DNA of 64,000 nt from an uncultured Methanosarcinales archaeon (GCA_964535955.1 CAZHVK010000006.1:1-64000), one strand, 5' to 3'. Shown: positions 5,566-55,843, counted from the first letter of the stretch. Notes: generated by a model not told the origin, from the sequence alone. Numbers and translations are program-made.

Positions 5566-5568
5566 ATA

Positions 5569-12365: not shown

Positions 12366-12440
12366 GATGTATGATAATACGAAAATCAGAATTCATTTAT
12401 AAATGTATCGTTGCAAAGCATTGATGCAATCCCTTGTTCA

Positions 12441-16046: not shown

Positions 16047-16094
16047 ATATATATATTATTGAGAAGTAGTTTTTATACTTTTCGATTTTTTTGT

Positions 16095-16257: not shown

Positions 16258-16308
16258 TCGATTTTTTTGTTAGTTAGATTTATAAATCCAGATTCATTTC
16301 TAATAAAT

Positions 16309-17525: not shown

Positions 17526-17579
17526 AATATAGTTAAAAAAACACAAGATTTTTAAAACCTTTGATTTTAAATGCTTTTT

Positions 17580-18299: not shown

Positions 18300-18312
18300 G
18301 AGGCTGAAAAAA

Positions 18313-18636: not shown

Positions 18637-18638
18637 GC

Positions 18639-18899
18639 ATGAAAATAAGTAAGAAAATAGACATAAAGAATCTATATGGAAAAAATTTCAAAATCATAGT
18701 CAAACCAAACTCAAGTTCAAATGAAATTCTAGGTTATGATGCATCCAAAAATGCATACAGAATCAATATCAAAGCTCCTACTGACAAAAACAAAGCAAAC
18801 AAAGAGATTGTTAAGTTTTTGTCAAAAAAGCTGGGTAAGAAAGTCAGGATTAAGTCTGGATTGACATCAAAAACAAAATTAATAGAAGTTATTGGTTAG
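18639..18899 (+). CDS. DUF167/YggU family protein
   Basis: VKPNS...APTDKNKANKE...SGLTSKTK. Confidence 0.85.
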   Translation: MKISKKIDIKNLYGKNFKIIVKPNSSSNEILGYDASKNAYRINIKAPTDKNKANKEIVKFLSKKLGKKVRIKSGLTSKTKLIEVIG

Positions 18900-19485: not shown

Positions 19486-19648
19486 TTTATTACCAAGAAA
19501 TCAGAGGTATTTAAATAGTTTTTCTTACACTTATTAAGGAGTGAAAACTCAAAAATAAATGTTTAATACTTATATACTTCCAAATACTCATTCCAAAATC
19601 ATTAAATATATAAATAACTTATAAAACAAAAAATTAAAGGTAGATAGA

Positions 19649-20953
19649 TTGATAAAAAAACTCTTTGAAGATTTTCCAAAAAACGAGAACACTTCTTTAT
19701 TTATGGTTTTTGAAGGCCTAGATGGAGCTGGAAAAGGTTCTTTTATGGGTATGATTCAGAAATTCATATTTCAGTATGTTAAAATATGTTCAGGATTATT
19801 AGCAACAAGAGAACCAACATATGGCGGCTTTGGTTATAAACAACGGGTCATGTTAGCAATAGACTCAGACCCCAATTCAAAAAAAGAAGAATGCATTTAT
19901 AATTATGTAAACGATCGAAAAGCTCATCAAAGAGAGATCAGAGCAATACTAAAACCAAGTGATTCAAATCCATTTGGCATTGTGATGTGTGATAGATACA
20001 TGTTTTCTACATTAGCATTTCAAGTTGCTCAGGAAGAACTAGCATATCTTAAAGAACATGATAAAGAGATACCATTTGAAGAAAAAATAGAGATATTTAA
20101 AAAACTAATAATTATACACCGAGATCAAGATCCTAAAAAAGATGTATTATTTCCAGACATAATATTTTTATTAGACCTTCCTGCAGAAGTTGCTGTAAAA
20201 AGAAGTGTAGGCGATAGTGCAAGACAATTTGGTGTTGAAAAATTTGAAACAGTGTTAATGCAGAATCTTGTAAGAAGAAATTATTTATATCTAGCATCTC
20301 AGTGTGACAATTGTGTTGTTCTTAACTCACACCTTACTCCAAGACAATTATTTGAAGATGCATTACAATTTGTAATATATTATCTTGACAAAAAATGTCC
20401 AAAAAACCTAAAATATTTATTAAAGAACATTGACAAAGCATTTTATAAAGAATCTTATCTTGACACAATCCAAAGAGCTAAGTTAGCATTTGAAACAAAA
20501 CAAGATTTTAATCTATTAAATGAAAATCAATACCTTGTTAATCAAGTTTCTATTGAGGTTCATTTTGAATCAAGAAATATATACGAAAAAAGAGACTTAT
20601 TTTTAAAAAATTTAAATAATGAATGGACAAGCTTAAATGGAAAGATAAATTATAATGAATTTGAAAAAGATGCTGTCAAAAGAATAATCAAAACAGATTT
20701 AGGTATTGATGTTGATAATAACCAAATAAGCATGGGTCATAAAGTATATAGGGTCAACAAAGAAATTAAATATGCACATTCATACCATCTTTACCTAAAA
20801 TCAAAAGACATATTTCTTAATAAACAAAAATATAAAGATTTTGGCTGGTTTACTGATATAGATCAGCCAAGAATAGCAGAATATGAAAAAACAACACAAT
20901 TAAAGATTAATGGGTTTTTAAAAGAATTAAGAAAAAGCGCAATAGATTTATAA
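19649..20953 (+). CDS. tmk: Thymidylate kinase fused to a C-terminal degenerate Nudix-like domain
   Basis: FEGLDGAGKG, REPT and DRYMFST motifs; C-terminal GKINYNE-x7-RIIKTDLGI. Start codon uncertain (TTG). Confidence 0.85.
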   Translation: MIKKLFEDFPKNENTSLFMVFEGLDGAGKGSFMGMIQKFIFQYVKICSGLLATREPTYGGFGYKQRVMLAIDSDPNSKKEECIYNYVNDRKAHQREIRAILKPSDSNPFGIVMCDRYMFSTLAFQVAQEELAYLKEHDKEIPFEEKIEIFKKLIIIHRDQDPKKDVLFPDIIFLLDLPAEVAVKRSVGDSARQFGVEKFETVLMQNLVRRNYLYLASQCDNCVVLNSHLTPRQLFEDALQFVIYYLDKKCPKNLKYLLKNIDKAFYKESYLDTIQRAKLAFETKQDFNLLNENQYLVNQVSIEVHFESRNIYEKRDLFLKNLNNEWTSLNGKINYNEFEKDAVKRIIKTDLGIDVDNNQISMGHKVYRVNKEIKYAHSYHLYLKSKDIFLNKQKYKDFGWFTDIDQPRIAEYEKTTQLKINGFLKELRKSAIDL

Positions 20954-21371
20954 AAACACAAATCATCCTTTAGTATCTTTATTATCTGCTGTATCTTCTT
21001 TAGAACTAGTTTCAAAATCAAAAAGTCTTTTACAACCACGTTGTGCATCATAACTTATTTTTTTTTCTTGAATCATTATCACCCTCTTTTTTCAGTTACA
21101 GGCTTTCCTGTAACTGCATTCACATCTTTTTTTATAATCACCAAAACTTTTTTTCCCCTAAGGAATGAATAAAAATAATAAAAAATCATAATTGTTAATT
21201 TTACATTTTTTGTAAATCACAATTAGTATATAAAGAATATCAATATTGAATATATATAATGCATTGAGACATTATTCTAAAGTGATTGTTAAGAATATTA
21301 TTCCTCAGTAGGTAATACTTTTTACTATTAAAAAAAAGAAAATAAAAAAATAGAATAAAAACATAAAGAAT

Positions 21372-21716
21372 TTATTCAGCTGGTGCTTCTTCTGCTGGTG
21401 CTTCTTCTTTTTTCTCTTCTTCTTTCTTTTCTTCTTCAGCTGGTGCTTCTTCTTCTTTTTCTTCTTCAACTGGTGCTTCTTCTTTCTTTTATTCTTAATC
21501 TGTTTCTTCTTATTATTGTGCTGAATATTNNNNNNNNNNAATAACTTAATAATTATTTATTTTATAAAAAAGATAATAATAAATATTTTCAAATTCATTT
21601 TTTAATTCTTCTTTATTTTCTTCTTCAGCTGGTGCTTCTGCTTCTGGTGCAGCCTCTTCTTTCTTTTCTTCTTCAACTGGTGCTGCAGGTTGTTCTTCTG
21701 GTTGTTCTCCTTCCAT
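21372..21716 (-). CDS. Acidic low-complexity (E/A/P/K-rich) small protein, broken by the assembly gap
   Basis: GGAGG RBS plus ATG at 21716 (MEGEQPEEQPAAPVEEEKKEEAAPEAEAPAEE). Matching EAPAEE repeats end in TAA at 21372 on the other side of the N-run. Confidence 0.5.
21530..21539. other. Assembly gap (N run); flanks look low-quality
   Basis: Ten N bases. Confidence 0.99.
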
Positions 21717-21832
21717 ATATATCATTCCTCCATTATCTTAAACAATAATATACTTGAATAAACAAGAAATTATTTGCTTAATATATAAGAATTAATGAAT
21801 CATATAAAAAAGTTACTGTTATTATTAGTAAA

Positions 21833-22333
21833 TTATTTCTTTTGCTGTATTAAACTACCAACAGTATGTTCCTTAATCTTGCCATTAGAAGCATCTAATT
21901 TTATGTTAATTGTCTTAAATGATTTTGTAATAAGTGTAACATTCCAAACATTGCCAACTTTAGGCAGTTTTTGTATTATTATGATTGTTTTTATTGAATT
22001 CTCAGCAGGATATTCCTTTTTCTGATATTTGTCTACCAAATCCAGTGCTTGTTCAACATTTAATTTTACATTTTTAACATCTATTGGTAAAACCTTAGCC
22101 CCTTTTTTCTTTAAAACCTTATCTTCTCTAGAATCAACAAACTTACCTTGATGCATTGCAAATGTTGTTATTGTATCTTTTTTATTATCATAATAACCTA
22201 ATTGCCAGTCTGATGGCATTTTAGGATCAATTGCTAGAAATCCATAACTTAGGAAACAATTCTTATTCTTTTTTTTCCAATCCTTGAATTTTTTATTTTT
22301 TTCAAGTGTTTGTAATGCATTATGAAAGTACAT
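21833..22333 (-). CDS. Hypothetical protein with a PepSY-like C-terminus
   Basis: VWNVTLI...INIKLDASNGKI pattern. Confidence 0.65.
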   Translation of the reverse strand: MYFHNALQTLEKNKKFKDWKKKNKNCFLSYGFLAIDPKMPSDWQLGYYDNKKDTITTFAMHQGKFVDSREDKVLKKKGAKVLPIDVKNVKLNVEQALDLVDKYQKKEYPAENSIKTIIIIQKLPKVGNVWNVTLITKSFKTINIKLDASNGKIKEHTVGSLIQQKK

Positions 22334-36783: not shown

Positions 36784-39036
36784 TTAGCCAGCATCATATA
36801 ATTGCTTAACTTCTGCATCTGTCAATTCTCTACCATAGACTCTTACTTCATCAATTAATCCATCAAAGCCATGACCAATGTTCATTGGTGATGTAAAACT
36901 GTAGAGATAACCAGCATTATTTCCTGGAGTTCCTTTAGTATTTTCTCCATCAACATATATCCACATATAATTTGTATTTGGTCCATAAACTTTGAAAGCT
37001 ATATGATGCCATTTATTTAAATCATCTTGAGTCCATTGAAAGCCATAACGGTACTTTTCCAATCCACACATAATTATTGGTTTATTAGTACCTGCATGTA
37101 TAAACTTTAATGTGGGGTAATTACTTTCTGCTGAAGAAAACAATGATGAACTTGTTAAAGTACGTGGTTTAATCCACATTGCTACAGTGTAATGAGCATT
37201 ATACAATTCTTCTATATCAACTCCAACTGAATCTGTACCATCAAAATTCAAAGCTTTATTCTTTTTACCAGTAACAAATGTTGCTCCACTATTAGTTCCA
37301 TCATTCTCCTTTCCACTAACATCATTAGCATCACCATCAAAAGGATAATAAGCAACCAAACCAGTTGCTGGAATTATCGGTGTTGGTACAACACACTTAC
37401 CTTTTTCACATTTCTGTCCAGTTCCACATTTACCTGGTCTATAATCCAGACAAGGATCAGGGTCAGCATAAATACAATTATCCTTAGTTACATCATCTTT
37501 ACACTTCCATTCATAAGGTGTACAATCATTAGTACAACAACCATGATTACCATCACCACGAAGATAACATTTAGCATCTGGACATGTTTCTTGTTTAACC
37601 CATGAAGTGCAACCATTATCATTAGTTTTACAAACCAAAACATCATTAATATTATTGTCATCACACTTAGTTTCTGCTTCTGTGCATTGATCTTGACATT
37701 CTGCTCCTTCTCCAACTTCAACACACATTTCACACAATTTTTTTATCTTAGGTTCTATGAAATTACCTTTACAATGATCAGTATCAGCTGCACAAAACTC
37801 TTCAACAGCGTTATAATCAGACTTTTCTTTATCAACACAATCTTCAGCACAGTTGCAAACAGTTTCATGTTCATCACATGAACCATCACCACAATCAACA
37901 CAAGTGCCTACTTCCCAACCACCTGCAATTGCAGGATAATAACATATGTCTGCAACAGAAAATCCTAACTGTGATACTTGTTTTAATCCAGAGCAACATT
38001 TTAGATATGTTGTAAATATTTCAGAACCTTTTTCACCAACACCTGCACATTCCTCTTCACCTTCACCTTCTGCTTCACCTTCACTAGGAATATCAGCTCC
38101 ACCAGCACCAAGACATCTTGCTTCCCAATCAATTGCTGATATTGCTGCATCTTCTGCTTTCATCTTTGCTTCAACTTCTGCTTTACATGAAACAGCATCT
38201 TGCGGATCTGTGCAAGGTTCTTGAGGAAGACATTTTGCATCAGCAGGATTTATTTTATAAAAACTGTATTGACAGCAGTTAGACTTATCTCCTTCTGTGA
38301 TATAAGCTTCTTTTATATCATCACCACAACAATAACCATCAACTTCACCTATCCACTGAAGACCACATTTTTCACACATTTCTTTATTAGAATCCATATC
38401 ATCAATCACACTTACTTCTAATAAATGTGCCATCCACTTACCTTCTGTACCATCTTCACCATGACAATCTTTTGCATCATCCCATACATATCTTTCATTT
38501 AGATCATATTCTTTTGGCTCTGTTTCTGAACATCCGTATGTGAGAAAGAATCTTTTTCTTGCAGGTAGTCTTGATAAAGGATATTGTGCAATGATAGGTG
38601 AATCACCTCTTAACCAATTACTACTACCTATCCTTTCACCATCAGAATAATCTGTGAATGATTTTTCTTTCCAAAGATTTTCTAGGTCAACTGTTTCACC
38701 AGGCGCAGGATCTTCTGCATACAAAAATGTGTTATATATATACTGATCATTCTGCGCTGTTAATTCAATCATTTTTTCATCTTCACCAATCATAAACACA
38801 ACTTTTTCTTCTGGCTTTATTTGAAAATAACTAGTTGGATCAGCAGCCCACACATCCTGGTCAGCATCTAAGAATTCAGCTGCTTTGTATACTTGCCCAA
38901 CAGGTGCACTTGCTGCTTGTTCTTCACCTGGCTTCATTGGCTCAGGAGGCAGATTACCTTCTTCAGCTGTTTTGCATGATGCTAAGCTGAATATTAAAAT
39001 TACTAAAATAAAGAATAGAAATATTTTTTTATGCAT
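36784..39036 (-). CDS. Cys-rich putative lipoprotein with a C-terminal LamG/concanavalin-like domain
   Basis: LASC lipobox-like motif; LVAYYPFDG...ALNFDG...WHHIAF...FDGLIDEVRVY. Confidence 0.85.
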   Translation of the reverse strand: MHKKIFLFFILVILIFSLASCKTAEEGNLPPEPMKPGEEQAASAPVGQVYKAAEFLDADQDVWAADPTSYFQIKPEEKVVFMIGEDEKMIELTAQNDQYIYNTFLYAEDPAPGETVDLENLWKEKSFTDYSDGERIGSSNWLRGDSPIIAQYPLSRLPARKRFFLTYGCSETEPKEYDLNERYVWDDAKDCHGEDGTEGKWMAHLLEVSVIDDMDSNKEMCEKCGLQWIGEVDGYCCGDDIKEAYITEGDKSNCCQYSFYKINPADAKCLPQEPCTDPQDAVSCKAEVEAKMKAEDAAISAIDWEARCLGAGGADIPSEGEAEGEGEEECAGVGEKGSEIFTTYLKCCSGLKQVSQLGFSVADICYYPAIAGGWEVGTCVDCGDGSCDEHETVCNCAEDCVDKEKSDYNAVEEFCAADTDHCKGNFIEPKIKKLCEMCVEVGEGAECQDQCTEAETKCDDNNINDVLVCKTNDNGCTSWVKQETCPDAKCYLRGDGNHGCCTNDCTPYEWKCKDDVTKDNCIYADPDPCLDYRPGKCGTGQKCEKGKCVVPTPIIPATGLVAYYPFDGDANDVSGKENDGTNSGATFVTGKKNKALNFDGTDSVGVDIEELYNAHYTVAMWIKPRTLTSSSLFSSAESNYPTLKFIHAGTNKPIIMCGLEKYRYGFQWTQDDLNKWHHIAFKVYGPNTNYMWIYVDGENTKGTPGNNAGYLYSFTSPMNIGHGFDGLIDEVRVYGRELTDAEVKQLYDAG

Positions 39037-42939: not shown

Positions 42940-43161
42940 ATGGTATTAAAAACATTCAATGTACAAGAAGGTGTATATAAAAAATTTTCAGGATTTTGTA
43001 AGTCTCATGGAATAAGCATGAGTAAACAAGTGGAAATATTTATGGAATCTATGATAGAAGAAGACCCAGAAGCAAAAAAAGAATATCTCGAAAAATTAGA
43101 AAGGATTAGGAAAATGAGATTTATTAGAGTAAATAATTTTGCTAAGAGATATGGTTTATGA
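42940..43161 (+). CDS. Ribbon-helix-helix antitoxin-like protein
   Basis: KTFNV...YKKF..FC...G.SMSK.VE RHH pattern; overlaps the toxin start (ATGA). Confidence 0.75.
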   Translation: MVLKTFNVQEGVYKKFSGFCKSHGISMSKQVEIFMESMIEEDPEAKKEYLEKLERIRKMRFIRVNNFAKRYGL

Positions 43162-43424
43162 AAATGGAATTTGATTTAGATATTGCTGAAAAGCTAGATA
43201 AAAAGTTCAAAAAATTAGCTAAAAAAGATAAAAATCAAATGATAAAGATTGATAAGAAGATTCAAGAGATATTAATAAATCCATATCATTATAAACCTTT
43301 GCGTGGAGATTTACATGGTTCAAGAAGAGTTCATATTGGACACTTTGTTTTAGTTTTTGAGATCGATGAAAAGAAAAATGTGGTTAGACTTTTAGATTAT
43401 GATCATCATGATTATATTTATTAA
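43158..43424 (+). CDS. RelE/ParE (StbE-like) toxin
   Basis: NPYHYKPLRGDLHGSRRVHIGHFVLVFEID...DYDHHD. Confidence 0.9.
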   Translation: MKMEFDLDIAEKLDKKFKKLAKKDKNQMIKIDKKIQEILINPYHYKPLRGDLHGSRRVHIGHFVLVFEIDEKKNVVRLLDYDHHDYIY

Positions 43425-43462: not shown

Positions 43463-44233
43463 TCACTTAAACCATTTCTTCATATATATTTCAATTTCTT
43501 TTACAAATTCTTGTCTTGTAGCAACCACATCTTTGATATTATATGTTTCTGCAATTTTTAGATAATCACTAGTCATAGGAGTTATATCTCTTAATAAATT
43601 ATCAGCCATATCTTTTGTAAATCCAGTATTATAGATATAACCCCCAGGTAACTTGATTGTATTGTCTCTTAAAGCAGATTCAATAACAAGTGTGTTAAAT
43701 GCTTTGTGTTTATTCTTGATTCCTGCAACAACTAAGTAAGGATTTATTGTGAATAATGAGTCTTGTTTTGCCGTGTTATCATGTAGTGTGAAATAATTTT
43801 TCATATGATTTAGTTCAGGCACTGCTTTAAACAAGTCACTTATTTTTTTACTATTAATATATTCTTTTATATCTGTCTCTAATGCATATTCACCTAAGAT
43901 CATTCTAACAACATCTCTTAAAAAATCATCAGTAGCATTATTTAATACAAAATATCCTGCTAAGAATGCACCAGTTGTGTTTATACTAGGAGTAATAAGA
44001 ATAATATCATATCCATATTGTCTGATAATCTTTTCATATGCTTGGCTCATTTTAAAGCTTGCTGTCTGTCCAGGCATATGGCCTTTGTAATAATTAACCA
44101 ATGCATTGCCTAATATCTTTTTTGCATTTTCCAGCATTTTTTCAGGAACATGGTCTAGTTTAGTTATTTCTGACTGTGGTTGTTTTGGTTTTTCAGGAAC
44201 CTTCATGTCTTCTATTGCGTCGTCAATTGCCAT
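43463..44233 (-). CDS. MAIDDAI-leader protein 9 (type B; paralog of 49178-49939)
   Basis: Shared leader; ENAKKILGN and MILGEYALETDIK match the paralog. Confidence 0.85.
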   Translation of the reverse strand: MAIDDAIEDMKVPEKPKQPQSEITKLDHVPEKMLENAKKILGNALVNYYKGHMPGQTASFKMSQAYEKIIRQYGYDIILITPSINTTGAFLAGYFVLNNATDDFLRDVVRMILGEYALETDIKEYINSKKISDLFKAVPELNHMKNYFTLHDNTAKQDSLFTINPYLVVAGIKNKHKAFNTLVIESALRDNTIKLPGGYIYNTGFTKDMADNLLRDITPMTSDYLKIAETYNIKDVVATRQEFVKEIEIYMKKWFK

Positions 44234-45011
44234 TTTGTTCTAGATAATATCCCTCTTTATTCAGTCTATATCCTAATTTATCAACTTGTTTTAGAATGTT
44301 TTGATAAAACAGATTGCTTTGTGCTAGTTTTTTGTTCATCTCAGTCTTTGCAATATCATCAGCATCTTCTATTGTGTCTAGATTTATTTTTTGCATAAGA
44401 CTGCCTTTATCAGATACATGGACAAAGTCTTTATCATGATCACCTATCATTCCAGAAGCGTTTTTATCATACATAATCTCACTAACAATATCAAGACTAT
44501 CCATAACATGAATCTTTGTGTCCTTGTGTTGATTATAACCATTATACACTGGTATAATCCCAGCTTTTTGATCATGATATTGTATATAACAAGGTCTTTT
44601 GTCTACTCTCAGAGTTCTTTTTTCTGTAGCTGTTGAAAGTTTAAGAGCGCCATATATTCCAGGAACCATGACTAAAATACAAACACACGTAAGGGCTGTC
44701 ATAGGATGAGTTAAGTAGTAATTATTTATTTTATCTTTAATACTTTGTTTTGGTATTTTTGGGTTAATGTGATTATCTATATTTTCTTTTACTGAATTCA
44801 CTATCACACTTATTCCTGATATATCATCATTATATTCAGATAATTCCTTTGTATCATAATCAACTAATTCAGAAATCTTTTCACAAAGATCTTTGACTAT
44901 TATTGGAAGTTTTTCTTGTTTTGTAAGTTCTTCAACTATTTCTTCTGGTTCTTCTTCTAAATCAATCTTTTCAGGAACCTTCATTTCATCTATTGCATCG
45001 TCGATTGCCAT
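44223..45011 (-). CDS. MAIDDAI-leader protein 8 (type C; internal TM helix)
   Basis: Shared leader; hydrophobic segment ALTCVCILVMVPGIYGAL. Confidence 0.85.
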   Translation of the reverse strand: MAIDDAIDEMKVPEKIDLEEEPEEIVEELTKQEKLPIIVKDLCEKISELVDYDTKELSEYNDDISGISVIVNSVKENIDNHINPKIPKQSIKDKINNYYLTHPMTALTCVCILVMVPGIYGALKLSTATEKRTLRVDKRPCYIQYHDQKAGIIPVYNGYNQHKDTKIHVMDSLDIVSEIMYDKNASGMIGDHDKDFVHVSDKGSLMQKINLDTIEDADDIAKTEMNKKLAQSNLFYQNILKQVDKLGYRLNKEGYYLEQNGN

Positions 45012-45847
45012 TATTTAATAACCTCATACTTTAGATCAGGATTATGTTCTATTATCTTAAGATAGATCTGATTAAGCACTTCATCACCATTATCCTTATT
45101 ACTATTAATTGTTTTAAACATAAAAATATTAAGTTCTTCTAATTCTTTTAAAATAGTTAAAACACCTTCAGACCCATTATCTCTGCAATATTCAGCATAT
45201 TTTGTCAATTTTTCTATATCTTTTAACTGCAGAACTTCAGTCGGTCTATGAACATCATCAGGAACCTTAAATCCAGCAAGCACTGTAGAACCTGTACGAA
45301 TAAGATAATTTTTCTTTTCTAATATTGTATATCTAAGACCTACATATTCTAAAAAATCATGCATTTCTTTACCATGCTCGATCATTAAACCAGTAAAATA
45401 AAAAGGAATATTGTTTATTCTTTTCTTAACAAATTTTACTAATTCATTATAATCAATACATTTTCTAATTCCCTCATTAATTGCACTAAACTTTGTTAGA
45501 TCTTTTTCAAAAGGGAGTGTTATTATATCATCAAGATTATCCACAATATCCATTTTTTCAAATATTGTTTTATATTGTTCTTCTTTAATAGTCACCAAAT
45601 CAACAAAATCTTTTTTAGGAACCTGGAAAATAGTATGCAGATTTGGTTTAAACTTAACCCAAGGTACAAAATAAAAAAAATTGAACCTCCCAAGATTTTC
45701 CTGTAACCCATTCAATGCCCATCTTAATACATATGCTTTCCATTCAGGAATTCTATTAGACTCTGGTTTAACAGAATCTGTTGTTATTTGTTCTTGTTCC
45801 ACTTTCACATGAACCTTCATCTCATCTATTGCATCGTCGATTGCCAT
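45011..45847 (-). CDS. MAIDDAI-leader protein 7 (type A, IEHG family)
   Basis: Leader; FTGLMIEHGKE, LKELEEL, HNPDLKY. Confidence 0.85.
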   Translation of the reverse strand: MAIDDAIDEMKVHVKVEQEQITTDSVKPESNRIPEWKAYVLRWALNGLQENLGRFNFFYFVPWVKFKPNLHTIFQVPKKDFVDLVTIKEEQYKTIFEKMDIVDNLDDIITLPFEKDLTKFSAINEGIRKCIDYNELVKFVKKRINNIPFYFTGLMIEHGKEMHDFLEYVGLRYTILEKKNYLIRTGSTVLAGFKVPDDVHRPTEVLQLKDIEKLTKYAEYCRDNGSEGVLTILKELEELNIFMFKTINSNKDNGDEVLNQIYLKIIEHNPDLKYEVIK

Positions 45848-45848
45848 T

Positions 45849-46685
45849 TTATTTCTTACCTCTGTATATTAGATTTGGATTGTATTTTGCTAATCTTTTA
45901 AAGATCTCTTGTCTCATACCAACCATAAGACTTTGATTTGAGGCATCTTTATCATTATAACTTTCAAATGATTTATCTAATTCATCTAATTCTTTGATAA
46001 CTTTGGTCACTTCTGCACCATTATTCTGAATATAATCTGCAAAAGGAATAAGAAAGTCAGCCTCTTGCTTAGTCAATTGTTCTATAGTTGGATTTACCTT
46101 CATCTTAGAACCAGACAACAGAACAAATCTATCAATATTTTCAGGAAAACCTTTTTCCATAAATTTATACATATTAATAAAGTCTTTACCATGCTCTATC
46201 AATAATCCTGCAAATAAAAAAGGAATATAAAATTCATTAGTCTCAATATTTCTTAATGTCTTACTATTTAGATTATTACACAAGATCTCATCTATAACAC
46301 TATTACTTGTTATCTTTCCAGGATCTTCACCTTCATAAAAATCAATATATTGTGCAAGATCTTCTTGATCAGTTAAAGTAGCACTTAACACTTTCCACAG
46401 ATGGTCGTATTTTTGTGATTTAGTATATTCAATAAAATCAAATACATTGATATATAGGTGAGGATTTATCAGATGATCAAACTTAACCAAACCACTAATC
46501 TTATCAAAACTCATTGAATCTGAGAATTTCTTTATCCTTTCAAGATAATCAAACAAGATATAACTCTGCCAATCTGTTGCATATTTCATGTCTTGCAATG
46601 ATTTATTGACTACAACAAGGTCTTTCTTGCCTTGATCTACTTTTCCAGGTACATCCATTTCATCAATTGCATCATCAATTGCCAT
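45849..46685 (-). CDS. MAIDDAI-leader protein 6 (type A)
   Basis: Leader; FAGLLIEHGKD, IKELDEL, YNPNLIY. Confidence 0.85.
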   Translation of the reverse strand: MAIDDAIDEMDVPGKVDQGKKDLVVVNKSLQDMKYATDWQSYILFDYLERIKKFSDSMSFDKISGLVKFDHLINPHLYINVFDFIEYTKSQKYDHLWKVLSATLTDQEDLAQYIDFYEGEDPGKITSNSVIDEILCNNLNSKTLRNIETNEFYIPFLFAGLLIEHGKDFINMYKFMEKGFPENIDRFVLLSGSKMKVNPTIEQLTKQEADFLIPFADYIQNNGAEVTKVIKELDELDKSFESYNDKDASNQSLMVGMRQEIFKRLAKYNPNLIYRGKK

Positions 46686-46686
46686 T

Positions 46687-47526
46687 TTATTTCTTACCTC
46701 TGTATATTAGGTTTGGATTGTATTGTGATAGTCTTTTGAATATGAACTGCCGAATATTTGGTGTAATTTGTGAAAAACTGGTTCCATTATATTTTTTTAA
46801 TTCTTTATCTAGTTCTTCTAATTCTTTGATAGATTTTGTTATATCTGATCCATGTTCTTGAATATAATCAACTAAAGGCATAGTAAAATTTCTTTTCATT
46901 TCCATTAATTTATCAACAATACTACGAACCCTTATATCTTCAGTATTTAGACCATCAACAAATTCTAGATTTAAATTCATACTTTGAAGTTTTCCATTTC
47001 CAAGAGTTTTACAGAAATAAGCAAACTCTTTTCCATGTTCAATCAGTAGCCCAGAAAAAGCAACTGGAAGAGAAAAATGTACATTTACAATCTTTTTTAT
47101 AGTACTATGATTATAAAAATCATCTATGATCCCATTGATAAGATTATTATTAGTAGTTTTGTGACCACCAGGAAAATCAATATAACTGTTCAAATCTTTT
47201 TTATCAATTACAGTTCTGCTTAATACTTGCCACAAATCAGTATATTTCTTTTCTTTAGTATTCTTAATCAAATCCTTTATTTGAATATATATATGGGGGT
47301 CCATATTAGAATCAAATTTAATTAAACTAGCAACCATGGGTCTACAATTAGCAGGTAATGAAAAATTTGATTTTTGTAAATAATTATTTAAGATAATCTC
47401 TTGCCAATCTGTTGCATATTTCATGTCTTGCAATGATTTATTGACTACAGTAATCTTTCCAGGTTTTGCATCTGAACCTGGTTTTCCAGGAACTTTCATT
47501 TTGTCTATTGCATCGTCGATTGCCAT
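46687..47526 (-). CDS. MAIDDAI-leader protein 5 (type A)
   Basis: Leader; FSGLLIEHGKE, IKELEEL, YNPNLIY. Confidence 0.85.
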   Translation of the reverse strand: MAIDDAIDKMKVPGKPGSDAKPGKITVVNKSLQDMKYATDWQEIILNNYLQKSNFSLPANCRPMVASLIKFDSNMDPHIYIQIKDLIKNTKEKKYTDLWQVLSRTVIDKKDLNSYIDFPGGHKTTNNNLINGIIDDFYNHSTIKKIVNVHFSLPVAFSGLLIEHGKEFAYFCKTLGNGKLQSMNLNLEFVDGLNTEDIRVRSIVDKLMEMKRNFTMPLVDYIQEHGSDITKSIKELEELDKELKKYNGTSFSQITPNIRQFIFKRLSQYNPNLIYRGKK

Positions 47527-47528
47527 TT

Positions 47529-48350
47529 TTATGGAATTAGTCCTCCTTTTATTGAACCAGAATCACTAGTCTCATAAACCAAGTTAGGATTATACTTTTT
47601 CAATCTTTCAAATACACTATCAGTGACAAAATCATCAGGCTTTTCAGTATGCTTTTTATTAAAAACATCAAATTCTTCTAAATCTTTGATAACATTTTTC
47701 ACATTATCATGAGCATTAGTTTGTTTTAGATAATCCATTAGATAATTCAGATTATGACCATAAAAATCAAAACATTTAACAGCACTCCTTACACGATATA
47801 TTCCTTTTTTTTCACTTTTAAACAAAACTTTAGGGTTTTCTAGACCTTCTCTATGTTCTCTATATAGTTTATCACTAACATAGTCTAAGATCTCAACAAA
47901 TTCTTTACCATGCTCAATTAATAACCCTGTAAAAGAAAAATGATAAATAAATCCAGACTTTTCTCTTGCTTTTTTAATAGCATCATATGCAAGGCATTCT
48001 TTTATTTCTCTATTTAATATTCTGTATTTTGTTGGTTCTTCATCATATGGAAATGCAATTTTTTTGTCATATTCTGCTTTAGTTAATTTTTCTTGTAAAA
48101 ATATAGCTAGTTCATCGTCTTGTGTTTTAACATAATCAACAAGATCCCTCATAACAAAATAAACAAGAGGCTTCATCTTATTATCAAACCTGATAAATTG
48201 TGGTAAAAATACCTGATAAGTATCTAATTGTTCATCTCTATAATCTTCTAAGATCTGCTCTTGCCATTGAGGAATAAACAAACTGCCTTTTTGTTTCTTT
48301 TCTTTAACCTTTTTCACATCCATCTCTTCAATTGCATCATCAATTGCCAT
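47529..48350 (-). CDS. MAIDDAI-leader protein 4 (type A)
   Basis: Leader; FTGLLIEHGKE, IKDLEEF, YNPNLVY. Confidence 0.85.
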   Translation of the reverse strand: MAIDDAIEEMDVKKVKEKKQKGSLFIPQWQEQILEDYRDEQLDTYQVFLPQFIRFDNKMKPLVYFVMRDLVDYVKTQDDELAIFLQEKLTKAEYDKKIAFPYDEEPTKYRILNREIKECLAYDAIKKAREKSGFIYHFSFTGLLIEHGKEFVEILDYVSDKLYREHREGLENPKVLFKSEKKGIYRVRSAVKCFDFYGHNLNYLMDYLKQTNAHDNVKNVIKDLEEFDVFNKKHTEKPDDFVTDSVFERLKKYNPNLVYETSDSGSIKGGLIP

Positions 48351-49161
48351 TCTTCATACCCTCATAAGTTAAATTAGGATTAAACTTCTTAACTCTATCA
48401 TAAATCATTCCATAAATAACTTTCCCAACCTGCGGAGCATTACGGATTTCTTCAATAAAAGTATCAAGTTCACCTAAATCATGTATAACATCATGAACCC
48501 TATCAACACCATGCTCTTTTCCATATTTAAAAAAATATTCTACATCATTCCAACAAACATTTATCAAAGATATGGGTGATCTGCAATCTCTTTTTTTCAA
48601 AACATCAGAATAAATAATCATATTGTCCATAAGATCACGTTTCGTACTGTTTCTTTCAACATTCCTGAACAGATTAACAAAATCTTGGCCATGTTCAATC
48701 AATAAAGCAGAAAACATAAAAGGCAGGTCCTGCATATCTTTGCATACTGATCTTAGTTCTCCATAATGAAGTGCTTGTTCTATCTCATTTCTATACTTAC
48801 CAAGTTTATATAATCTCAGTTCTGTATAAGATATAACAATATGATCATCAAATTTACCTTCATTAACAGCAGTGTTCATCAAAAACCTAAGAACAGGGTC
48901 TCTTTTTTCTATAAACTTCATAAATTCATATATTGGTACTGAAAAAATACCACCCATATTTTTATTAAACCTAAACCATGGATAGATACAATTCAAACTT
49001 TGTGCATCATTAATCACCTGCCTTGAAAAATAATCTCTTAGCACTTGATTTTGCCAATAATCAATATTAGGAATAAACTCACTATTAAACTTTTTCTCTA
49101 GACTCTTCTTTAGCTTAAGGTGACTTAGTCTCATTTCCTCTATTGCATCGTCTATTGCCAT
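48340..49161 (-). CDS. MAIDDAI-leader protein 3 (type A)
   Basis: Leader; FSALLIEHGQD, IHDLGEL, FNPNLTY. Confidence 0.85.
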   Translation of the reverse strand: MAIDDAIEEMRLSHLKLKKSLEKKFNSEFIPNIDYWQNQVLRDYFSRQVINDAQSLNCIYPWFRFNKNMGGIFSVPIYEFMKFIEKRDPVLRFLMNTAVNEGKFDDHIVISYTELRLYKLGKYRNEIEQALHYGELRSVCKDMQDLPFMFSALLIEHGQDFVNLFRNVERNSTKRDLMDNMIIYSDVLKKRDCRSPISLINVCWNDVEYFFKYGKEHGVDRVHDVIHDLGELDTFIEEIRNAPQVGKVIYGMIYDRVKKFNPNLTYEGMKNGN

Positions 49162-49177
49162 TTTATGTTTTACCTCA

Positions 49178-49939
49178 TCAAAACATTGGCCATCTTTCCC
49201 TATATATTTGCCTTATCTCATCTAATCTTTCATATGCTAGGGTTACTTGATCATAATTATACTTTTCTGCAACCTCTATAAGACATGACATAGGAATCTT
49301 TGTCCTATCCAATAACTCATTCATTTCTCCTTTTGTAAGAATGACTCTGTCAAGAGACTTTTTGAGTAATGTTACTTTGCCTTTCTCTATTGCTTTATGT
49401 GCTGCAAGTGTTGCCAATGCTTTTTTATTCTTACCCTGTATCATTGTAGCAAACAACACAGGATGAACAGTTGCAAAATTAATTGCTTTTGATTGTGAAC
49501 AAAGAACATTATATAGTTCAGCTACTTCTTCATATTTTGCTAAAGTACTCACTCTTTGTATAATTATGTTTTTCACATCTGTTTTCATTGCATAATTACC
49601 TAACATTATCTCAAGAAGTTTCATCTTGTGTACAGACTCTATGCCATATAATTGAACATCTAATCTTCTTGTCCAAGGAATAAACTTAGTATGTTCAGGA
49701 ATAAGGCCAATCAAATAAAAACCAAGCTCCCTGATCACTTGTTTATGTTTTGGATGTAAAGTATAATGACTTTTTTGTCCTTCAAGCCAGCCTCCAAAAT
49801 ATCTTTTTAGATAATTACCCATGATCTTTCTTGCATCTTCTATCATGTCATTACCTTGTACAGATGTGTCAATAGGTTCTTTATCTACTTCAATCTTTTC
49901 AGGTACTTCCATTTCATCTATTGCATCGTCTATTGCCAT
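49178..49939 (-). CDS. MAIDDAI-leader protein 2 (type B)
   Basis: Leader; EDARKIMGN, IMLGNYAMKTDVK. Confidence 0.85.
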   Translation of the reverse strand: MAIDDAIDEMEVPEKIEVDKEPIDTSVQGNDMIEDARKIMGNYLKRYFGGWLEGQKSHYTLHPKHKQVIRELGFYLIGLIPEHTKFIPWTRRLDVQLYGIESVHKMKLLEIMLGNYAMKTDVKNIIIQRVSTLAKYEEVAELYNVLCSQSKAINFATVHPVLFATMIQGKNKKALATLAAHKAIEKGKVTLLKKSLDRVILTKGEMNELLDRTKIPMSCLIEVAEKYNYDQVTLAYERLDEIRQIYRERWPMF

Positions 49940-49955
49940 TGTGATTCTACCTCAT

Positions 49956-50186
49956 TCATTCTTCCTGTTCTTCAGCTTTTGCACTATAAGCAATACTTAT
50001 GCTTCGAGCAACTCTACTAACTTTGTCAAGTTCTTTAGCATATTCTCCTGCTTCTTCAGGTGTAAGTTTATCTGTTTCTTTCATACAATTACCTAACTCC
50101 TGGTTAATATAATCCAAATTACGCTGTACTCTTTCACCTGAAGTCTCAGGTAAATTCATAGCTTTTATCGCATCATCTATTGTCAT
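49956..50186 (-). CDS. MTIDDAI-leader protein 1 (type D; short helical protein)
   Basis: Variant leader MTIDDAIKAM; starts 2 nt after the VWA gene stop, with a GGAGG RBS inside the upstream gene. Confidence 0.8.
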   Translation of the reverse strand: MTIDDAIKAMNLPETSGERVQRNLDYINQELGNCMKETDKLTPEEAGEYAKELDKVSRVARSISIAYSAKAEEQEE

Positions 50187-50188
50187 TT

Positions 50189-52180
50189 TTAACTTCCTCC
50201 ATTATTTCCATAATCCTTCTTCTTTGCACTATCATAAGTCTTTTTTACTTCACCTACTACAATACCAATAAGATCGTCAATACTATTAACTTCATAGATC
50301 AGAGCACCTCTTGGCTCTATTCTTTCAACAAAACTCCTACCCCAGCCAGTACCAATATTAAAAACAGCAACAGTGTCATGCTTAGAAATACCATAAACAA
50401 AAGCATCATCACAAGCCTCTTTCCAATTATCAATTGCACAGTCACTCATCAAACAAGTCAGTAAAGGATTTTTTGTTTTTTTGATAATATTCCGAACCTT
50501 TTCAATAGGAACAGTTGTTCCACCACCATAATTACACATGATTGCATATTCAACCTTGTTAATATCTTTTGTAAACTCCTGCATCTGGCAATTACCACGA
50601 CCAGAGAAATTAATAACAGCTACTTTTCCGCCATTATCAATGGCATATACTGCAGCAGCTTCTGCAGCTAATGCTGCTTTATCAAAATCACCTCTTGCTT
50701 CTGGTGGATTTACCCATGGATGCCAGGGCATGCTTCCAGATGAATCAATTACAATAAACAAGTCAGGTATTCTCTTTAGCCTACCAATATGTTTTGACTT
50801 TTTCATCTCTCTTTTCACTGTTGTTAAGCATGGTATAGGTTTTCCAGATAACATCATTGATGCAACAATGTCTAATGCACCTTTTCCAACAACAGGATCA
50901 CCAATATTCCAAGTAGTTCTATATGCTGGTGTTGTTTTACCCATCTGGTTTTCTTTTTCTTTTATCTTCATAAAAAGTTCTTTTGCCCTTGCTCTGTACA
51001 TATAACGAAGTGCATCAGTTGGTTCTAACATATACAAAGCACCCATTGTACCTGCAAACTTGTTTGGTGCATCTTTGTTTCTTTGAAAAATAGCATCAAG
51101 AACATCATCACCAATATTTGGTGAACCATTTTTATCATCTTGATCACCTTTGTCACCCTTGCCCTTGCCTTTTTTATCTGCATCTTTATCACTCTTATGC
51201 CCATCACCTAATGGACTTTCTGTTGGTTCTCCCATTTGTGCTTTTACATCATCTGGTACACCTGTTCCTTGTCCAATCTGTGGCACTCCTTGCCCTTTAC
51301 CACCTTTACCTTTGCCTTTGCCTTTACCTTTTCCTTTTCTTTTATACCTGCTTTTATTACCTTTACCACTCATCTGCTTAGCTGTCTTTTTGATTATTGG
51401 TTCTAGAACTTTTGCAAACTTTCTTACTTTTTGTTCCCATGTTTTTTCATCTTTCCAATCATTTCCTAGTACATCAACCAAACCTTGAGCAGCTTTTTCA
51501 CATTCAGCATCTTTTTGCTGAACATGCTGGCTAAAACCAAGATCTTCATTCCACATTTTTTCAATAGCAGAAATCATTGTCTGCCAGAGATAAGATGGTT
51601 GTTGTGGTGTGTTTCTTGCTTCTGCAATTGTCTCTTTTTCTCTCCAAATAGTCAATTCACCTACATCAACTCTTCCATATTTTTCTTTTGCAAGAAATGT
51701 GTCAATAACCATGTCACCCATTATATTCAATGTTAAGAATGCACAAGCATGAGCAACTTCTTTGAACTTTGTTATCTCAGGATCTGAAAAACCTTTTAAT
51801 GCAGAATCAATAAGAACAGCTTCTTTTACACCACTAGCAGGAAATTTTGCATAATGCATTATCTCATGATGAAATATGCTTCTTGCATATCTTTTTAATT
51901 CTAATTCTTTAGTAATATCTTTAGGAATATCTTCTGCATTAAAAAAAATCCTCCATGTCCTAGGATCAATGCAAAAACCTCTAGGAATAGCATCTTTATA
52001 TTCATCAGGCATCCTATCATACTTTTTAGTCTTATCACTATCTGCATCTATTATGACTGGATCAGGAAGATTAGAAATATATAGATCCCAGCTAGCTTCT
52101 AAAAATGCTTTTCTAACATCATCTTCTGGTATATGTCTTTTTGGACTGATACTACCTTTGACAATATCAATTAATCCCAT
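50189..52180 (-). CDS. HExxH metallopeptidase-like domain + Gly/Lys/Asp-rich linker + VWA (MIDAS) domain protein
   Basis: FHHEIMH; KGKGKGKG linker; VIDSSGSM, GGGT and MSDC MIDAS elements. Confidence 0.88.
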   Translation of the reverse strand: MGLIDIVKGSISPKRHIPEDDVRKAFLEASWDLYISNLPDPVIIDADSDKTKKYDRMPDEYKDAIPRGFCIDPRTWRIFFNAEDIPKDITKELELKRYARSIFHHEIMHYAKFPASGVKEAVLIDSALKGFSDPEITKFKEVAHACAFLTLNIMGDMVIDTFLAKEKYGRVDVGELTIWREKETIAEARNTPQQPSYLWQTMISAIEKMWNEDLGFSQHVQQKDAECEKAAQGLVDVLGNDWKDEKTWEQKVRKFAKVLEPIIKKTAKQMSGKGNKSRYKRKGKGKGKGKGKGGKGQGVPQIGQGTGVPDDVKAQMGEPTESPLGDGHKSDKDADKKGKGKGDKGDQDDKNGSPNIGDDVLDAIFQRNKDAPNKFAGTMGALYMLEPTDALRYMYRARAKELFMKIKEKENQMGKTTPAYRTTWNIGDPVVGKGALDIVASMMLSGKPIPCLTTVKREMKKSKHIGRLKRIPDLFIVIDSSGSMPWHPWVNPPEARGDFDKAALAAEAAAVYAIDNGGKVAVINFSGRGNCQMQEFTKDINKVEYAIMCNYGGGTTVPIEKVRNIIKKTKNPLLTCLMSDCAIDNWKEACDDAFVYGISKHDTVAVFNIGTGWGRSFVERIEPRGALIYEVNSIDDLIGIVVGEVKKTYDSAKKKDYGNNGGS

Positions 52181-53631: not shown

Positions 53632-54669
53632 ATGATAAAACAAGAACTAAACAAAATTCTATTATCAAAACAAGATATATTTACAGACACTATTGGACAA
53701 ACAAATGTAAAGCACCAACTAAAATCAGCATTATTATCAAACAGAAACATTATAATCGTTGGCTCACCAGGAATAGGTAAGACAACATTAGCAAAGAATA
53801 TTGCAAAAATACTGCCAGAAATAAATGCAGTTCAAGGATGTGGTTTTCATTGTGCAATCAACAACCCAATCTGTCCAGAATGTAAAAACAAAAAGAACAA
53901 AACAAAAGTTAAAGTTAGTGGAAATGAAAGATTCATAAGAATCCAAGGTTCACCAGACTTAACAGTTGAAGATCTTTTAGGTGATATTGATCCAATAAAA
54001 GCAATGAAATTTGGACCATTATCAATACAAGCTTTTACACCAGGAAAAATATTCAAAGCAAATAATGGAGTTCTATTTTTTGATGAAATCAACAGGTGCC
54101 CTGAAAAACTGCAAAATGCACTGCTCCAAGTTTTGCAGGAAAAAAAAGCAACTATTGGTTCATATGATGTTGATATTCCTGCAGATTTTTTGTTCATTGC
54201 AACAATGAATCCAGAAGATTCATCAACAGAAAGACTAAGCGATGTTCTTCTAGACAGATTTGACATAATCTACATGTCATTTCCAGAAACAATCAAGATT
54301 GAAAAACATATAATAAAAGTATCATGCAAAAAATTAGTCAAAACACCAGAAAATTTACTTCACCTAATGGCATATTTTATAAGATTACTTAGGCAATCAG
54401 ATAAACTAGAAAAAAAACCAAGTGTGAGAGCATTGCAAGGATTGTATGAAAGGTCACAGGCAAATGCAATGCTTAACAAAAAAAAACAAGTAAGAATGCA
54501 GGATATAAGAGATGTTTTAGTAAGTGTGCTTGCACACAGGATAAAACTAAAACCAAGTATAAAATATTTGATGAGTCCAGAAGCATTCTTAGCTAAAGAG
54601 TTTAAAGAATTCATGAAAACAAATGTTGGTAAAGAATTAGAAAAATCAGCAAAAGGGGATGTCCCCTGA
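53632..54669 (+). CDS. MoxR/ChlI-like AAA+ ATPase with a Cys4 insert
   Basis: GSPGIGKTT, LFFDEINR, ATMNP, LLDRF; CGFHC...CPEC insert. Confidence 0.9.
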   Translation: MIKQELNKILLSKQDIFTDTIGQTNVKHQLKSALLSNRNIIIVGSPGIGKTTLAKNIAKILPEINAVQGCGFHCAINNPICPECKNKKNKTKVKVSGNERFIRIQGSPDLTVEDLLGDIDPIKAMKFGPLSIQAFTPGKIFKANNGVLFFDEINRCPEKLQNALLQVLQEKKATIGSYDVDIPADFLFIATMNPEDSSTERLSDVLLDRFDIIYMSFPETIKIEKHIIKVSCKKLVKTPENLLHLMAYFIRLLRQSDKLEKKPSVRALQGLYERSQANAMLNKKKQVRMQDIRDVLVSVLAHRIKLKPSIKYLMSPEAFLAKEFKEFMKTNVGKELEKSAKGDVP

Positions 54670-55843
54670 CGTAGACATAAAAGTACAAAAAAAAGAACAA
54701 GCAGAAGAATTATCAGGCCAGCTTGACTCACAAACAGATGAAGATAAATTAATGCATTCTGTTATAGAAAATGATCAAGAAACAATAGACGAAGGCAAGG
54801 TAATCAAAGATGCAATTAATCAAGGCTTAGGAAGTTTCACACCAGACATGATGTTTGAAAACTTAGTAAAAGATTATAGAAATGCAGAACAGATATATGG
54901 AAAATCAATGCTAAGATATTTAACAGGTTATGATCCTGATTATGTTAAAAAAAATATAAAAATCCCAGAGTTTCAAAAAGAAATCAAAAAAAATATTGGC
55001 GAAGGGATAAAAAAATTAAAAGATAAAGAATTAATCAATAAAGATTTAGAAATAACAAAAAAAGGGTTTTATTTAGCATCGTTAATATTATACACAGAAG
55101 AACTTGACCACATTGTACCAAAAGGAATTCTTGGTGAATATGAACACAAAAAAACATCACACTATGGTCTTCCAAAAGATACAAAACTATTCAAAAAAGG
55201 TGACCGTTATCATGATATTGCTGTTAAAAAGTCTATAAAGGTTGCAATAAGAAGAGGCCACAATAAATTAATGATTGAAGATTTAAGAGCATTTGAAAGA
55301 CAGAGCAAAGGCAAAGCAATGATTATCTATGCAATGGATGCATCTGGTTCAATGAAAGGCAAAAGGATAGAAGCAAGTAAAAAAGCAGGAATTGCATTAG
55401 CATTCAAAGCAATAAATAAAAAAGATAAGATTGGATTAATTGTTTTCAAGAACAAAGTTATTTCAATGGTTGAACCAACACAAGATTTCTCCCTTCTATT
55501 AAAAGAAATAACACCAATAAGAGCTTCAGGTGAAACAGATTTTTCATCAACAGTAAGCAAAGCAATAGAAATGTTTCCTACTGAAAAAATAACAAAACAT
55601 CTTATTCTGCTGAGTGATGCATTACCAACATATGGTGCAGATCCTGAACATGAAACTTTGGCTGCAATTGCTTTAGCAAAAGAAAATGGAATAACCATAT
55701 CATTAATAGGTATAAACCTAGACAAAAAAGGCGAAGAACTAGGCAGAAAGATGATAGAGATAGGTGAAGGCAAGTTCTGGACAGTTAAGAATGTTGATGA
55801 ATTAGATAAGATTGTGTTAGAGGATTATTATGGAGTGATGTGA
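54659..55843 (+). CDS. VWA-domain protein (ChlD-like partner of the AAA+ ATPase)
   Basis: MDASGSM, GETD and LSDA MIDAS motifs; overlaps the AAA gene. Confidence 0.88.
   Translation: MSPDVDIKVQKKEQAEELSGQLDSQTDEDKLMHSVIENDQETIDEGKVIKDAINQGLGSFTPDMMFENLVKDYRNAEQIYGKSMLRYLTGYDPDYVKKNIKIPEFQKEIKKNIGEGIKKLKDKELINKDLEITKKGFYLASLILYTEELDHIVPKGILGEYEHKKTSHYGLPKDTKLFKKGDRYHDIAVKKSIKVAIRRGHNKLMIEDLRAFERQSKGKAMIIYAMDASGSMKGKRIEASKKAGIALAFKAINKKDKIGLIVFKNKVISMVEPTQDFSLLLKEITPIRASGETDFSSTVSKAIEMFPTEKITKHLILLSDALPTYGADPEHETLAAIALAKENGITISLIGINLDKKGEELGRKMIEIGEGKFWTVKNVDELDKIVLEDYYGVM

Follow-up and report, generated by a model that had tools for sequence, protein, structure and literature searches.

What could make nine adjacent genes with largely dissimilar products begin with the same short peptide? 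The question is posed by positions 43463-52180 of a 64,000-nucleotide (nt) stretch of DNA, referred to here as the window, from an uncultured Methanosarcinales archaeon (GCA_964535955.1 CAZHVK010000006.1:1-64000). The region consists of ten tightly packed minus-strand open reading frames (ORFs), the first of which, G0, encodes a protein with an HExxH motif and a VWA domain and is followed by nine genes, G1-G9, that share an N-terminal tag. In the interpretation favoured here, to which a probability of roughly 0.45 is assigned, the products of the locus would be the adaptor of a MoxR-class AAA+/VWA chaperone machine and that machine's clients, with the tag serving the clients as an N-terminal recognition handle.

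A preliminary description of the locus had pointed out nine consecutive tagged minus-strand ORFs directly behind the HExxH-VWA gene, and the ORFs, their spacing and the presence of the peptide IDDAI in 9/9 products were confirmed. G2-G9 (8/9) begin with MAIDDAI[DE]xM and G1 with MTIDDAIKAM, and the tag is followed by VP[EG]K in 5/9 of the proteins. When the 64-kb window is translated in six frames, IDDAI occurs at nine sites, as compared with 0.019 expected from composition, and all nine correspond to residues 3-7 of G1-G9, with none elsewhere. Across the nine genes, codons 2-7 of the tag gave synonymous (pS) and nonsynonymous (pN) differences of 0.52 and 0.016, respectively (ratio 0.03), and their synonymous sites have diverged about as far as unrelated sequence. 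Hence, the constraint on the tag is old and acts at the protein level, the latter as had been surmised from the mostly synonymous differences, and the pattern disfavours both recent gene conversion and an element acting as RNA or DNA as the cause of the sameness.

Neighbouring genes of the array overlap by up to 11 nt or are separated by up to 16 nt, only 2 nt separate the stop of G0 from the start of G1, and a GGAGG/GAGGT-like stretch precedes the start of every array gene. The gene spacing suggests that G0-G9 are co-transcribed. A promoter and terminator scan found 57 sites, as compared with 61.8 in shuffled sequences, using a bacterial consensus that is inapplicable to an archaeon, and an Rfam scan revealed no RNA family in the array locus.

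When the first 20 residues were removed and the remaining bodies were compared by blastp, G3-G7 joined as family A (23-43% identity, E 1e-6 to 3e-68) and G2 and G9 as family B (27% identity, E 5e-18), and G1 and G8 were left as singletons. These groups, together with a transmembrane (TM)-like segment of G8 that starts at residue 105 (19-residue Kyte-Doolittle mean 2.02) and has no counterpart in the other proteins of G1-G9, agree with the earlier division into five IEHG-family proteins, two type-B paralogues, one TM protein and one 76-residue protein. Clustering across homologous loci (see below) of a pool of 40 proteins, three of them untagged neighbours taken as candidates, gave family A with 12 members, family B with 12, family C with 6 (locus L003 only) and family D with 5 (L001 and L003), plus singletons. 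Profile-profile comparison with the tags stripped returned a probability of at most 2% for every family pair. With a 100-sequence profile for family B, hhalign detected a weak colinear C-terminal match to family A (15.9%, E 0.0016, 40 columns), and the remaining pairs stayed at or below 4.5%. The bodies had been called unrelated, and this holds in the sense that significant sequence or profile similarity between the families was not detected; a remote kinship is conceivable in view of the weak A-B signal and of the similar sizes, the tagged proteins being 223-296 amino acids (aa) long with the exception of G1 and one protein clipped by the end of its locus.

Family A is characterized by the motif F..L[LF]I..G and, at the C-terminus, by L[FY].RLKKYNP.L. 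In IEHG, the His is particular to this genome, and family A proteins of other genomes have IGQG, IEEG, ISDG or others at this place; a catalytic role of IEHG is ruled out by the lack of conservation of the His. Since few residues are invariant and turnover between genomes is fast, the sequences suggest that the proposed clients are structural, binding or interaction proteins rather than enzymes. A word-indexed homologue search with G5 returned G5 and G6 only, and a search with the 12-sequence profile of family A returned only these two and one Woesearchaeota protein.

For family B, a profile search among 1.84 billion representatives gave 123 proteins at E<=1e-3, including 98 at E<=1e-10. One 7228-aa protein (P0103), in which 23 stretches match profile positions 9-54, a charged linker, was set aside as a low-complexity match, leaving 122 representatives. 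The tag pattern lies within the first 20 residues of 41/122, at residue 1 in 38, and 36 of the 41 tag-bearing proteins fall among the best 60 matches; a variant N-terminus, xW[ED]xx[IVL], is found in 8/122, and the rest have other starts or are fragments. The AlphaFold2 (AF2) model of family B (G2, 100 sequences; pLDDT 92.2, pTM 0.86) is mostly helical with one hairpin and is less confident in the tag and linker (pLDDT 66-71). Foldseek searches with this model found no convincing relative in the PDB (best E 0.71) or BFVD (best E 0.31), with TM-scores of at most 0.21, and look-alike searches of the ESM Atlas with G2 and G6 gave no usable match. Sequence-profile searches of the PDB were likewise without a credible hit, the best E values of 0.077 (G0), 0.0077 (family A) and 0.036 (family B) being due to short stretches. 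Against Pfam, NCBIfam, PADLOC and PHROGs, G0-G9 gave sub-threshold noise only, such as a 16-bit match of G8 to SdiA-regulated and matches to three functionally uncharacterised PHROGs at E>=3e-4.

G0 contains HHEIMH at residues 104-109 (H105, E106 and H109) and DSSGS at 479-483. Its AF2 model, built with 15 sequences (pLDDT 72.9, pTM 0.70), is ordered at about 70-275, 355-416 and 470-655, and pLDDT falls below 50 at 281-305, 327-352 and 411-469. The modelled polypeptide runs from a helical N-domain, with two short strands before the HExxH-bearing helix 92-111, through a disordered linker rich in K, G and D (about 281-352 and 411-469), with helices at 355-416, to the VWA domain, an alpha/beta domain at 470-655. 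A Foldseek search of the whole protein against the PDB retrieved VWA domains only (TM-score up to 0.69 on the target), including those of collagen VI, TFIIH p44, BatB, CMG2, Rpn10 and the Rea1-MIDAS/Rsa4 complex (6qta; rank 10, E 1.7e-3).

[quoted passage not shown] N152 and D156 are also invariant, D160 is present in 67/70, and all three, which were considered with regard to a third zinc ligand, lie on the next long helix after the HExxH helix. Judged by model and alignment, the assignment of a VWA fold with a complete MIDAS, made in the preliminary description, is solid. Its term metallopeptidase stands as a reasonable reading of an invariant HExxH in a helical context, but was not backed by a match to a peptidase in Pfam, NCBIfam or by fold; peptidase families were absent even when eight N-domains of the G0 family were compared with Pfam at E<=10. 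G0 itself matched no family in Pfam (E<=0.01), NCBIfam, PADLOC or PHROGs, and its homologues from Asgard archaea reach Pfam VWA_2 at 27.6 bits (cut-off 27). Membership in DUF2201_N (presumably PF13203) or DUF2201 (PF09967) was not indicated for G0 at E<=0.01 or for the N-domains at E<=10, and a weak match to PF09967 (E 0.0097) came solely from the unrelated VWA protein encoded at 54659-55843. The closest relatives of G0 are proteins from Woesearchaeota metagenome-assembled genomes, with 47-54% identity.

A scan of genome contigs with the G0 alignment yielded 77 related loci. Six are of the DPANN/Woesearchaeota type (L001-L004, L008 and L009), with G0 homologues of 37-51% identity, and the other 71 encode homologues that are 24-33% identical over nearly the whole length, 61 of these loci being Asgard-named and ten named 'uncultured archaeon'. 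The Asgard lineages are Promethearchaeota and Thor-, Hod-, Odin-, Hermod-, Baldr- and Sigynarchaeota, and Promethearchaeum syntrophicum MK-D1 is represented among them. An unsupervised search for common N-terminal 10-mers among ORFs neighbouring the G0 homologues detected tagged arrays of 3 genes in L001, 6 in L002, 13 in L003 and 5 in L004 (four by the search and a fifth, MPIDSALEQLP, added by eye), which with the nine of the window gives 36 genes. Two-member N-terminal groups in eight other loci were dismissed as paralogue pairs or chance.

All 36 tagged genes lie in arrays contiguous with G0 or its homologue, a layout found in 4/6 of the DPANN relatives (Woesearchaeota), so that the earlier suggestion of a co-occurrence of the tag with the HExxH-VWA gene was borne out. 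The largest array seen, in L003, comprises at least 13 tagged genes on both sides of the G0 homologue, includes families C and D that are absent from the window, and, extending right up to where the fetched locus stops, is possibly longer. L008 and L009 have no array; their gene order is AAA+, one family B gene and G0, and the N-termini of the family B products are MAGTWEDIV and MADWDTII. Family B occurs in the window and in 6/6 DPANN loci, as compared with 0/71 of the other loci (within 10 kb). In the DPANN version of the system, the third conserved component is therefore family B, and not the IEHG family noted in the preliminary description. Between genomes whose G0 proteins are about 50% identical, the arrays vary from 3 to 13 genes and families may be present or absent, a turnover that resembles that of diversifying repertoires. 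A role in host interaction or defence had been put forward earlier; PADLOC and PHROGs gave no match, which is evidence neither way.

Over the first 11-13 residues, the tags of the different genomes conform to the consensus M-[PAT]-I-[DE]-D-x-[LI]-x-x-[ILM]-[EP]. The tag is acidic (net charge about -4 over ten residues) and amphipathic: positions 3, 6/7 and 10 are hydrophobic, acidic residues lie between them, and a flexible, charged linker comes next. At residue 2, only the small residues A, P, T, G and S occur. Asp5 is invariant in an 11-sequence alignment of family B, including the variant N-termini of L008 and L009.

The identity of the tags, computed on the first 11 residues of the 36 tagged proteins, averages 0.77 for the same genome and family (42 pairs), 0.68 for the same genome and different families (100 pairs), 0.40 for different genomes and the same family (94 pairs) and 0.43 for different genomes and families (394 pairs). 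Genome-specific versions include MPIDDALGNIE, MTIEDSLxKIE, MPID[DKQ]xLxxLE and MGT[IFL]D[DE]ALExLP. Because families A and B are common to several genomes, the tags have changed together across families in each genome. Tag identity thus tracks the genome rather than the body family, which points to one shared partner per genome, and, as judged from the sequences, concerted tags combined with high synonymous divergence fit better with co-evolution with a genome-specific reader than with recent conversion.

All six DPANN loci carry a MoxR-class AAA+ gene (488-505 aa) inside or beside the array or G0 locus, whose product matches Pfam AAA_5 and AAA_3 and has the Walker A sequence GGHGG[GS]K[TS]T. 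In the DPANN arrays this gene usually lies immediately before the terminal family B genes, roughly the position taken by G8 in the window. In other loci, an AAA+ homologue of 570-630 aa is encoded directly upstream of G0 (for example, in L005), and the neighbours vary. With a family hidden Markov model (HMM) and a threshold of 150 bits, the dedicated AAA+, whose Pfam families in the relatives are AAA_5, AAA_3 and AAA_lid_2, was detected in 65/77 loci, mostly Asgard. Among the 12 loci without it, 11 are truncated, with the start of G0 less than 500 nt from the locus start, and the remaining one, L013, has only a fragment, so that the gene is present in every complete relative. The MoxR-type AAA+ partner expected in the preliminary description was thus found in related loci, but not as a dedicated gene in the window.

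The only MoxR gene of the window is a generic one (57.9 bits to the family HMM, 27-33% identity by tblastn), which overlaps a gene for its own VWA partner and is encoded on the opposite strand to G0, at a distance of 1.4 kb upstream. The best NCBIfam similarity of this pair is to cobaltochelatase/Mg-chelatase subunits. The pair was rejected as the source of the cognate ATPase, given its own VWA partner, its cobaltochelatase-like character and its absence beside other arrays; its MoxR may still be a functional stand-in.

The arrangement predicted from these data is as follows. G0 would be a NorD-type adaptor, in which a disordered linker joins an N-terminal domain for specificity to the VWA domain at the C-terminus, and would pair with a dedicated MoxR-type ATPase such as those encoded in the relatives. 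The nine downstream proteins would be clients or subunits, each recruited to the same machine by the acidic amphipathic handle, after which the ATPase would remodel or assemble the client. According to PMC9976466, NorD likewise consists of an N-domain, a disordered linker and a VWA domain; what its MIDAS binds is not the ATPase but acidic residues on the target, and its N-domain is thought to confer specificity. Asp5 of the tag would most likely complete the metal coordination at the MIDAS of G0, much as acidic target residues do with other MoxR-associated VWA proteins. By the same analogy, the HExxH groove would be an alternative site for the handle, and the HExxH domain may hold the handle or clip it off. 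Co-folding of G0 with the first 45 residues of G2 in the presence of Mg and Zn, using the alignment of G0 relatives and an alignment of the nine tags and run without controls, gave ipSAE values of 0.00 and 0.00, a result that speaks neither for nor against binding.

The N-terminus of G0 itself, MGLIDIV, shares the spacing M-x-[LI]-x-D-x-[LIV] with the tag. Homologues of G0 start with MSLLDKL, MGLLDKL or MSLQDKL, and Asp or Glu occupies position 5 in 10/15 DPANN homologues. This tag-like N-terminus could be a pseudo-client sequence or a shared docking motif.

A more far-reaching version of the adaptor-client proposal appears doubtful as a whole. It would have one MoxR-AAA+/zincin-VWA machine reading an acidic handle which, having spread to a number of unrelated families, co-evolves with its reader in each genome, the client set being reshuffled in genome-reduced Woesearchaeota as a repertoire for host or virus interaction and the core being common to Asgard archaea.

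Several observations weigh against the adaptor-client interpretation. The 71 non-DPANN loci have the AAA+/G0 pair with neither a tagged array nor family B within 10 kb, so the AAA+/G0 core works without such clients and, as the Asgard loci indicate, the tagged arrays are a lineage-specific elaboration. A dedicated AAA+ gene was not found in the 64-kb window by tblastn or with the family HMM, and the N-domain of G0 resembles no peptidase family in Pfam and no peptidase fold in the whole-protein Foldseek search. The linkage of the tag was assessed within 10 kb of G0 homologues and in the window only. Finally, because the tagged proteins are similar in size and a weak A-B profile match exists, part of the apparent modularity of the tag may reflect extreme divergence of one ancestor.

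Another, rather unlikely, explanation is that the tag is an address to some other destination, be it a larger assembly, a compartment, a surface structure or non-classical export, and that G0 and the AAA+ are co-encoded helpers or regulators. The strict placement of the tag at residue 1 before a flexible linker is reminiscent of known targeting peptides, G8 has a TM-like segment, and families and copy numbers differ between genomes, all of which would suit an address. However, neither in the array nor among what is conserved beside it did Pfam, PHROGs or PADLOC reveal a gene for a shell, a capsid, a pore or secretion, the genes always linked to the tagged ones are those for G0, the AAA+ and family B only, and the tag is acidic rather than hydrophobic, unlike Sec or Tat signals.

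It is improbable that the tag is a self-association element, in which case N-terminal helices would bundle into a hetero-oligomer and the sameness of the tags would reflect mutual compatibility. The hydrophobic positions 3, 6/7 and 10 with acidic residues between them would allow such bundling, each array has several tagged proteins, and tag evolution is concerted within a genome. In L008 and L009, however, family B is represented by just one gene each, with a variant N-terminus, and there is no array, indicating that the motif predates any multi-member bundle. Moreover, a net charge of about -4 would disfavour a homotypic bundle without a cation or a basic partner, and an invariant Asp5 fits the role of a ligand better.

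Least probable is that the tag has no dedicated partner and that the tagged proteins are extremely diverged paralogues whose N-terminus is kept for generic reasons (translation initiation in a closely packed operon, Met removal, N-terminal modification or stability): the like sizes (223-296 aa for all but G1), the weak A-B match (15.9%) and the small residue 2 of every tag, which by an established rule means that the initiator Met would be removed, are compatible with this, but the synonymous sites of the tag vary freely (pS 0.52), so the constraint does not act on the RNA, the tags differ between genomes and are uniform across families within a genome, which a generic need would not predict, the other family pairs reach at most 4.5% in hhalign, and G1 (76 aa) and G8 (TM-like segment) are built differently.

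With the adaptor-client interpretation thus retained, the locus can be compared with known systems. MoxR/VWA pairs are widespread, and their clients are known in a handful of cases. NorQ-NorD, CbbQ-CbbO and RavA-ViaA share with G0 and its relatives the three-part VWA protein, the DxSxS...T...D MIDAS and the pairing with a MoxR-class protein. Each of them has one defined client (cNOR, Rubisco and fumarate reductase, respectively), whereas in the present case one N-terminal tag is borne by as many as 13 proteins that are encoded together and belong to several families. G0 further differs from NorD, CbbO and ViaA in the invariant HExxH of the N-domain and gave no Pfam or NCBIfam match to those families. 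Rea1/Midasin offers a precedent for a single MIDAS that recognises a common acidic-residue motif in different proteins, in the ubiquitin-like (UBL) domains of Rsa4 and Ytm1, as proposed for G0. In Rea1, the AAA+ and the MIDAS belong to the same giant polypeptide, and what is recognised is the folded UBL domain rather than a peptide at a terminus. The two proteins have the VWA fold in common, and no homology was shown beyond it.

MoxR-vWA ternary conflict systems, with VMAP, iSTAND, FtsH and beta-propeller components, are found mainly in multicellular bacteria, and their vWA component is occasionally fused to a metallopeptidase, according to the portions of Kaur et al. (2020, PMC7159879) that treat them. 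As far as described there, they resemble the present system in having a MoxR-vWA core, a conserved third component and variable, fast-evolving partners, and a common N-terminal tag across separate genes was not encountered in those portions. VMAP, iSTAND and bpMoxR gave no match to G0 or the dedicated AAA+, with PF20030 found only on the generic MoxR of the window, and the array proteins did not match the VMAP, iSTAND, FtsH or beta-propeller third components in Pfam, NCBIfam or PADLOC.

Short terminal peptides also target unrelated cargo in other settings, as exemplified by the phage T4 capsid-targeting sequence, the encapsulation peptides of microcompartments and the cargo-loading peptides of encapsulins. 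Like the tag, these are short conserved terminal peptides with a variable linker on unrelated, fast-changing co-encoded proteins. In contrast to those systems, a VWA/HExxH protein and an AAA+ are the partners that are conserved in the present case, and capsid, shell and encapsulin families were absent from G0-G9 and the tested loci proteins as judged by Pfam and PHROGs. To our knowledge, no tag is known for the p618 (MoxR)/p892 (VWA) system of Acidianus two-tailed virus. These two proteins are tail-assembly chaperones, as cited in PMC7159879, and would thus represent, as in the present system, an archaeal MoxR-VWA pair thought to assist a multi-protein structure in assembling; p618/p892 are viral, whereas the window is chromosomal and gave no PHROG match. 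A description of the system was not found in the main texts of the open-access papers searched or in curated libraries, and PMC6393860 mentions neither vWA nor MoxR.

If the adaptor-client interpretation is true, the clients would be labelled in the genome by a common handle and encoded beside their adaptor, which would constitute a rare recognition code that can be read from sequence. The tagged array takes up about 6.7 kb of the small genome (about 30% GC) of this symbiotic-type archaeon, and the changes in its families and copy numbers mark it as fast-evolving and of biological importance. Pfam, NCBIfam, PADLOC and PHROGs contain no match for G0 or for families A and B, and the fold of family B is unmatched in the PDB and BFVD. 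Since the AAA+/G0 core is present in 61 Asgard-named loci, any function found would annotate an unstudied Asgard gene pair, and the cultured Promethearchaeum syntrophicum would offer an experimental entry point should the more far-reaching version of the proposal hold.

The coordinates of the array genes, the AAA+ genes and other features are collected in Table 1.

Table 1. Features of the window and of related loci (L numbers).
Feature	Position	Strand	Description
G0	50189-52180	-	663 aa; HExxH and VWA
G0 N-terminus	52151-52180	-	tag-like spacing
G1	49956-50186	-	76 aa; tagged singleton, no similarity to other families
G2	49178-49939	-	253 aa; family B, tagged
G3	48340-49161	-	273 aa; family A ('IEHG'), tagged
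G4	47529-48350	-	273 aa; family A, tagged
G5	46687-47526	-	279 aa; family A, tagged
G6	45849-46685	-	278 aa; family A, tagged, 43% identity to G5
G7	45011-45847	-	278 aa; family A, tagged
G8	44223-45011	-	262 aa; tagged singleton, one TM-like segment
G9	43463-44233	-	256 aa; family B, tagged, last gene of the array
Generic MoxR	53632-54669	+	345 aa
VWA partner of generic MoxR	54659-55843	+	394 aa
L001 dedicated AAA+	13093-14610
L002 dedicated AAA+	6282-7748
L003 dedicated AAA+	19825-21297
L003 tagged array	8257-21917
L004 dedicated AAA+	12625-14097
L005 AAA+ and G0	7933-11695
Likely toxin-antitoxin pair	42940-43424	+	73-aa ORF and 88-aa ParE-family ORF
LAGLIDADG-type ORF	4765-5508		PF14528
tRNA (Rfam)	5470-5565	-	51.3 bits
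tRNA (ARAGORN)	5674-5768	-	four-base anticodon
Subtilase	12441-16046	-	1201 aa; PF00082
LamG/concanavalin-like	36784-39036	-	750 aa; PF13385

The surroundings of the array are those of an ordinary archaeal chromosome, with genes for aEF1A, aEF2, NrdD, Nre, a wyosine enzyme, ThyX and others. Adjoining the 3' end of the array and convergent with it is a likely toxin-antitoxin pair, in which an ORF without a Pfam match overlaps one for a ParE-family toxin (PF05016, E 9e-8). Near the beginning of the window, the LAGLIDADG-type ORF is followed by a tRNA match from Rfam and by an odd tRNA predicted by ARAGORN; this region (4765-5768) may represent an intron-containing or split archaeal tRNA. Two further minus-strand genes encode putative surface or secreted proteins, a subtilase and a protein with a C-terminal LamG/concanavalin-like domain.

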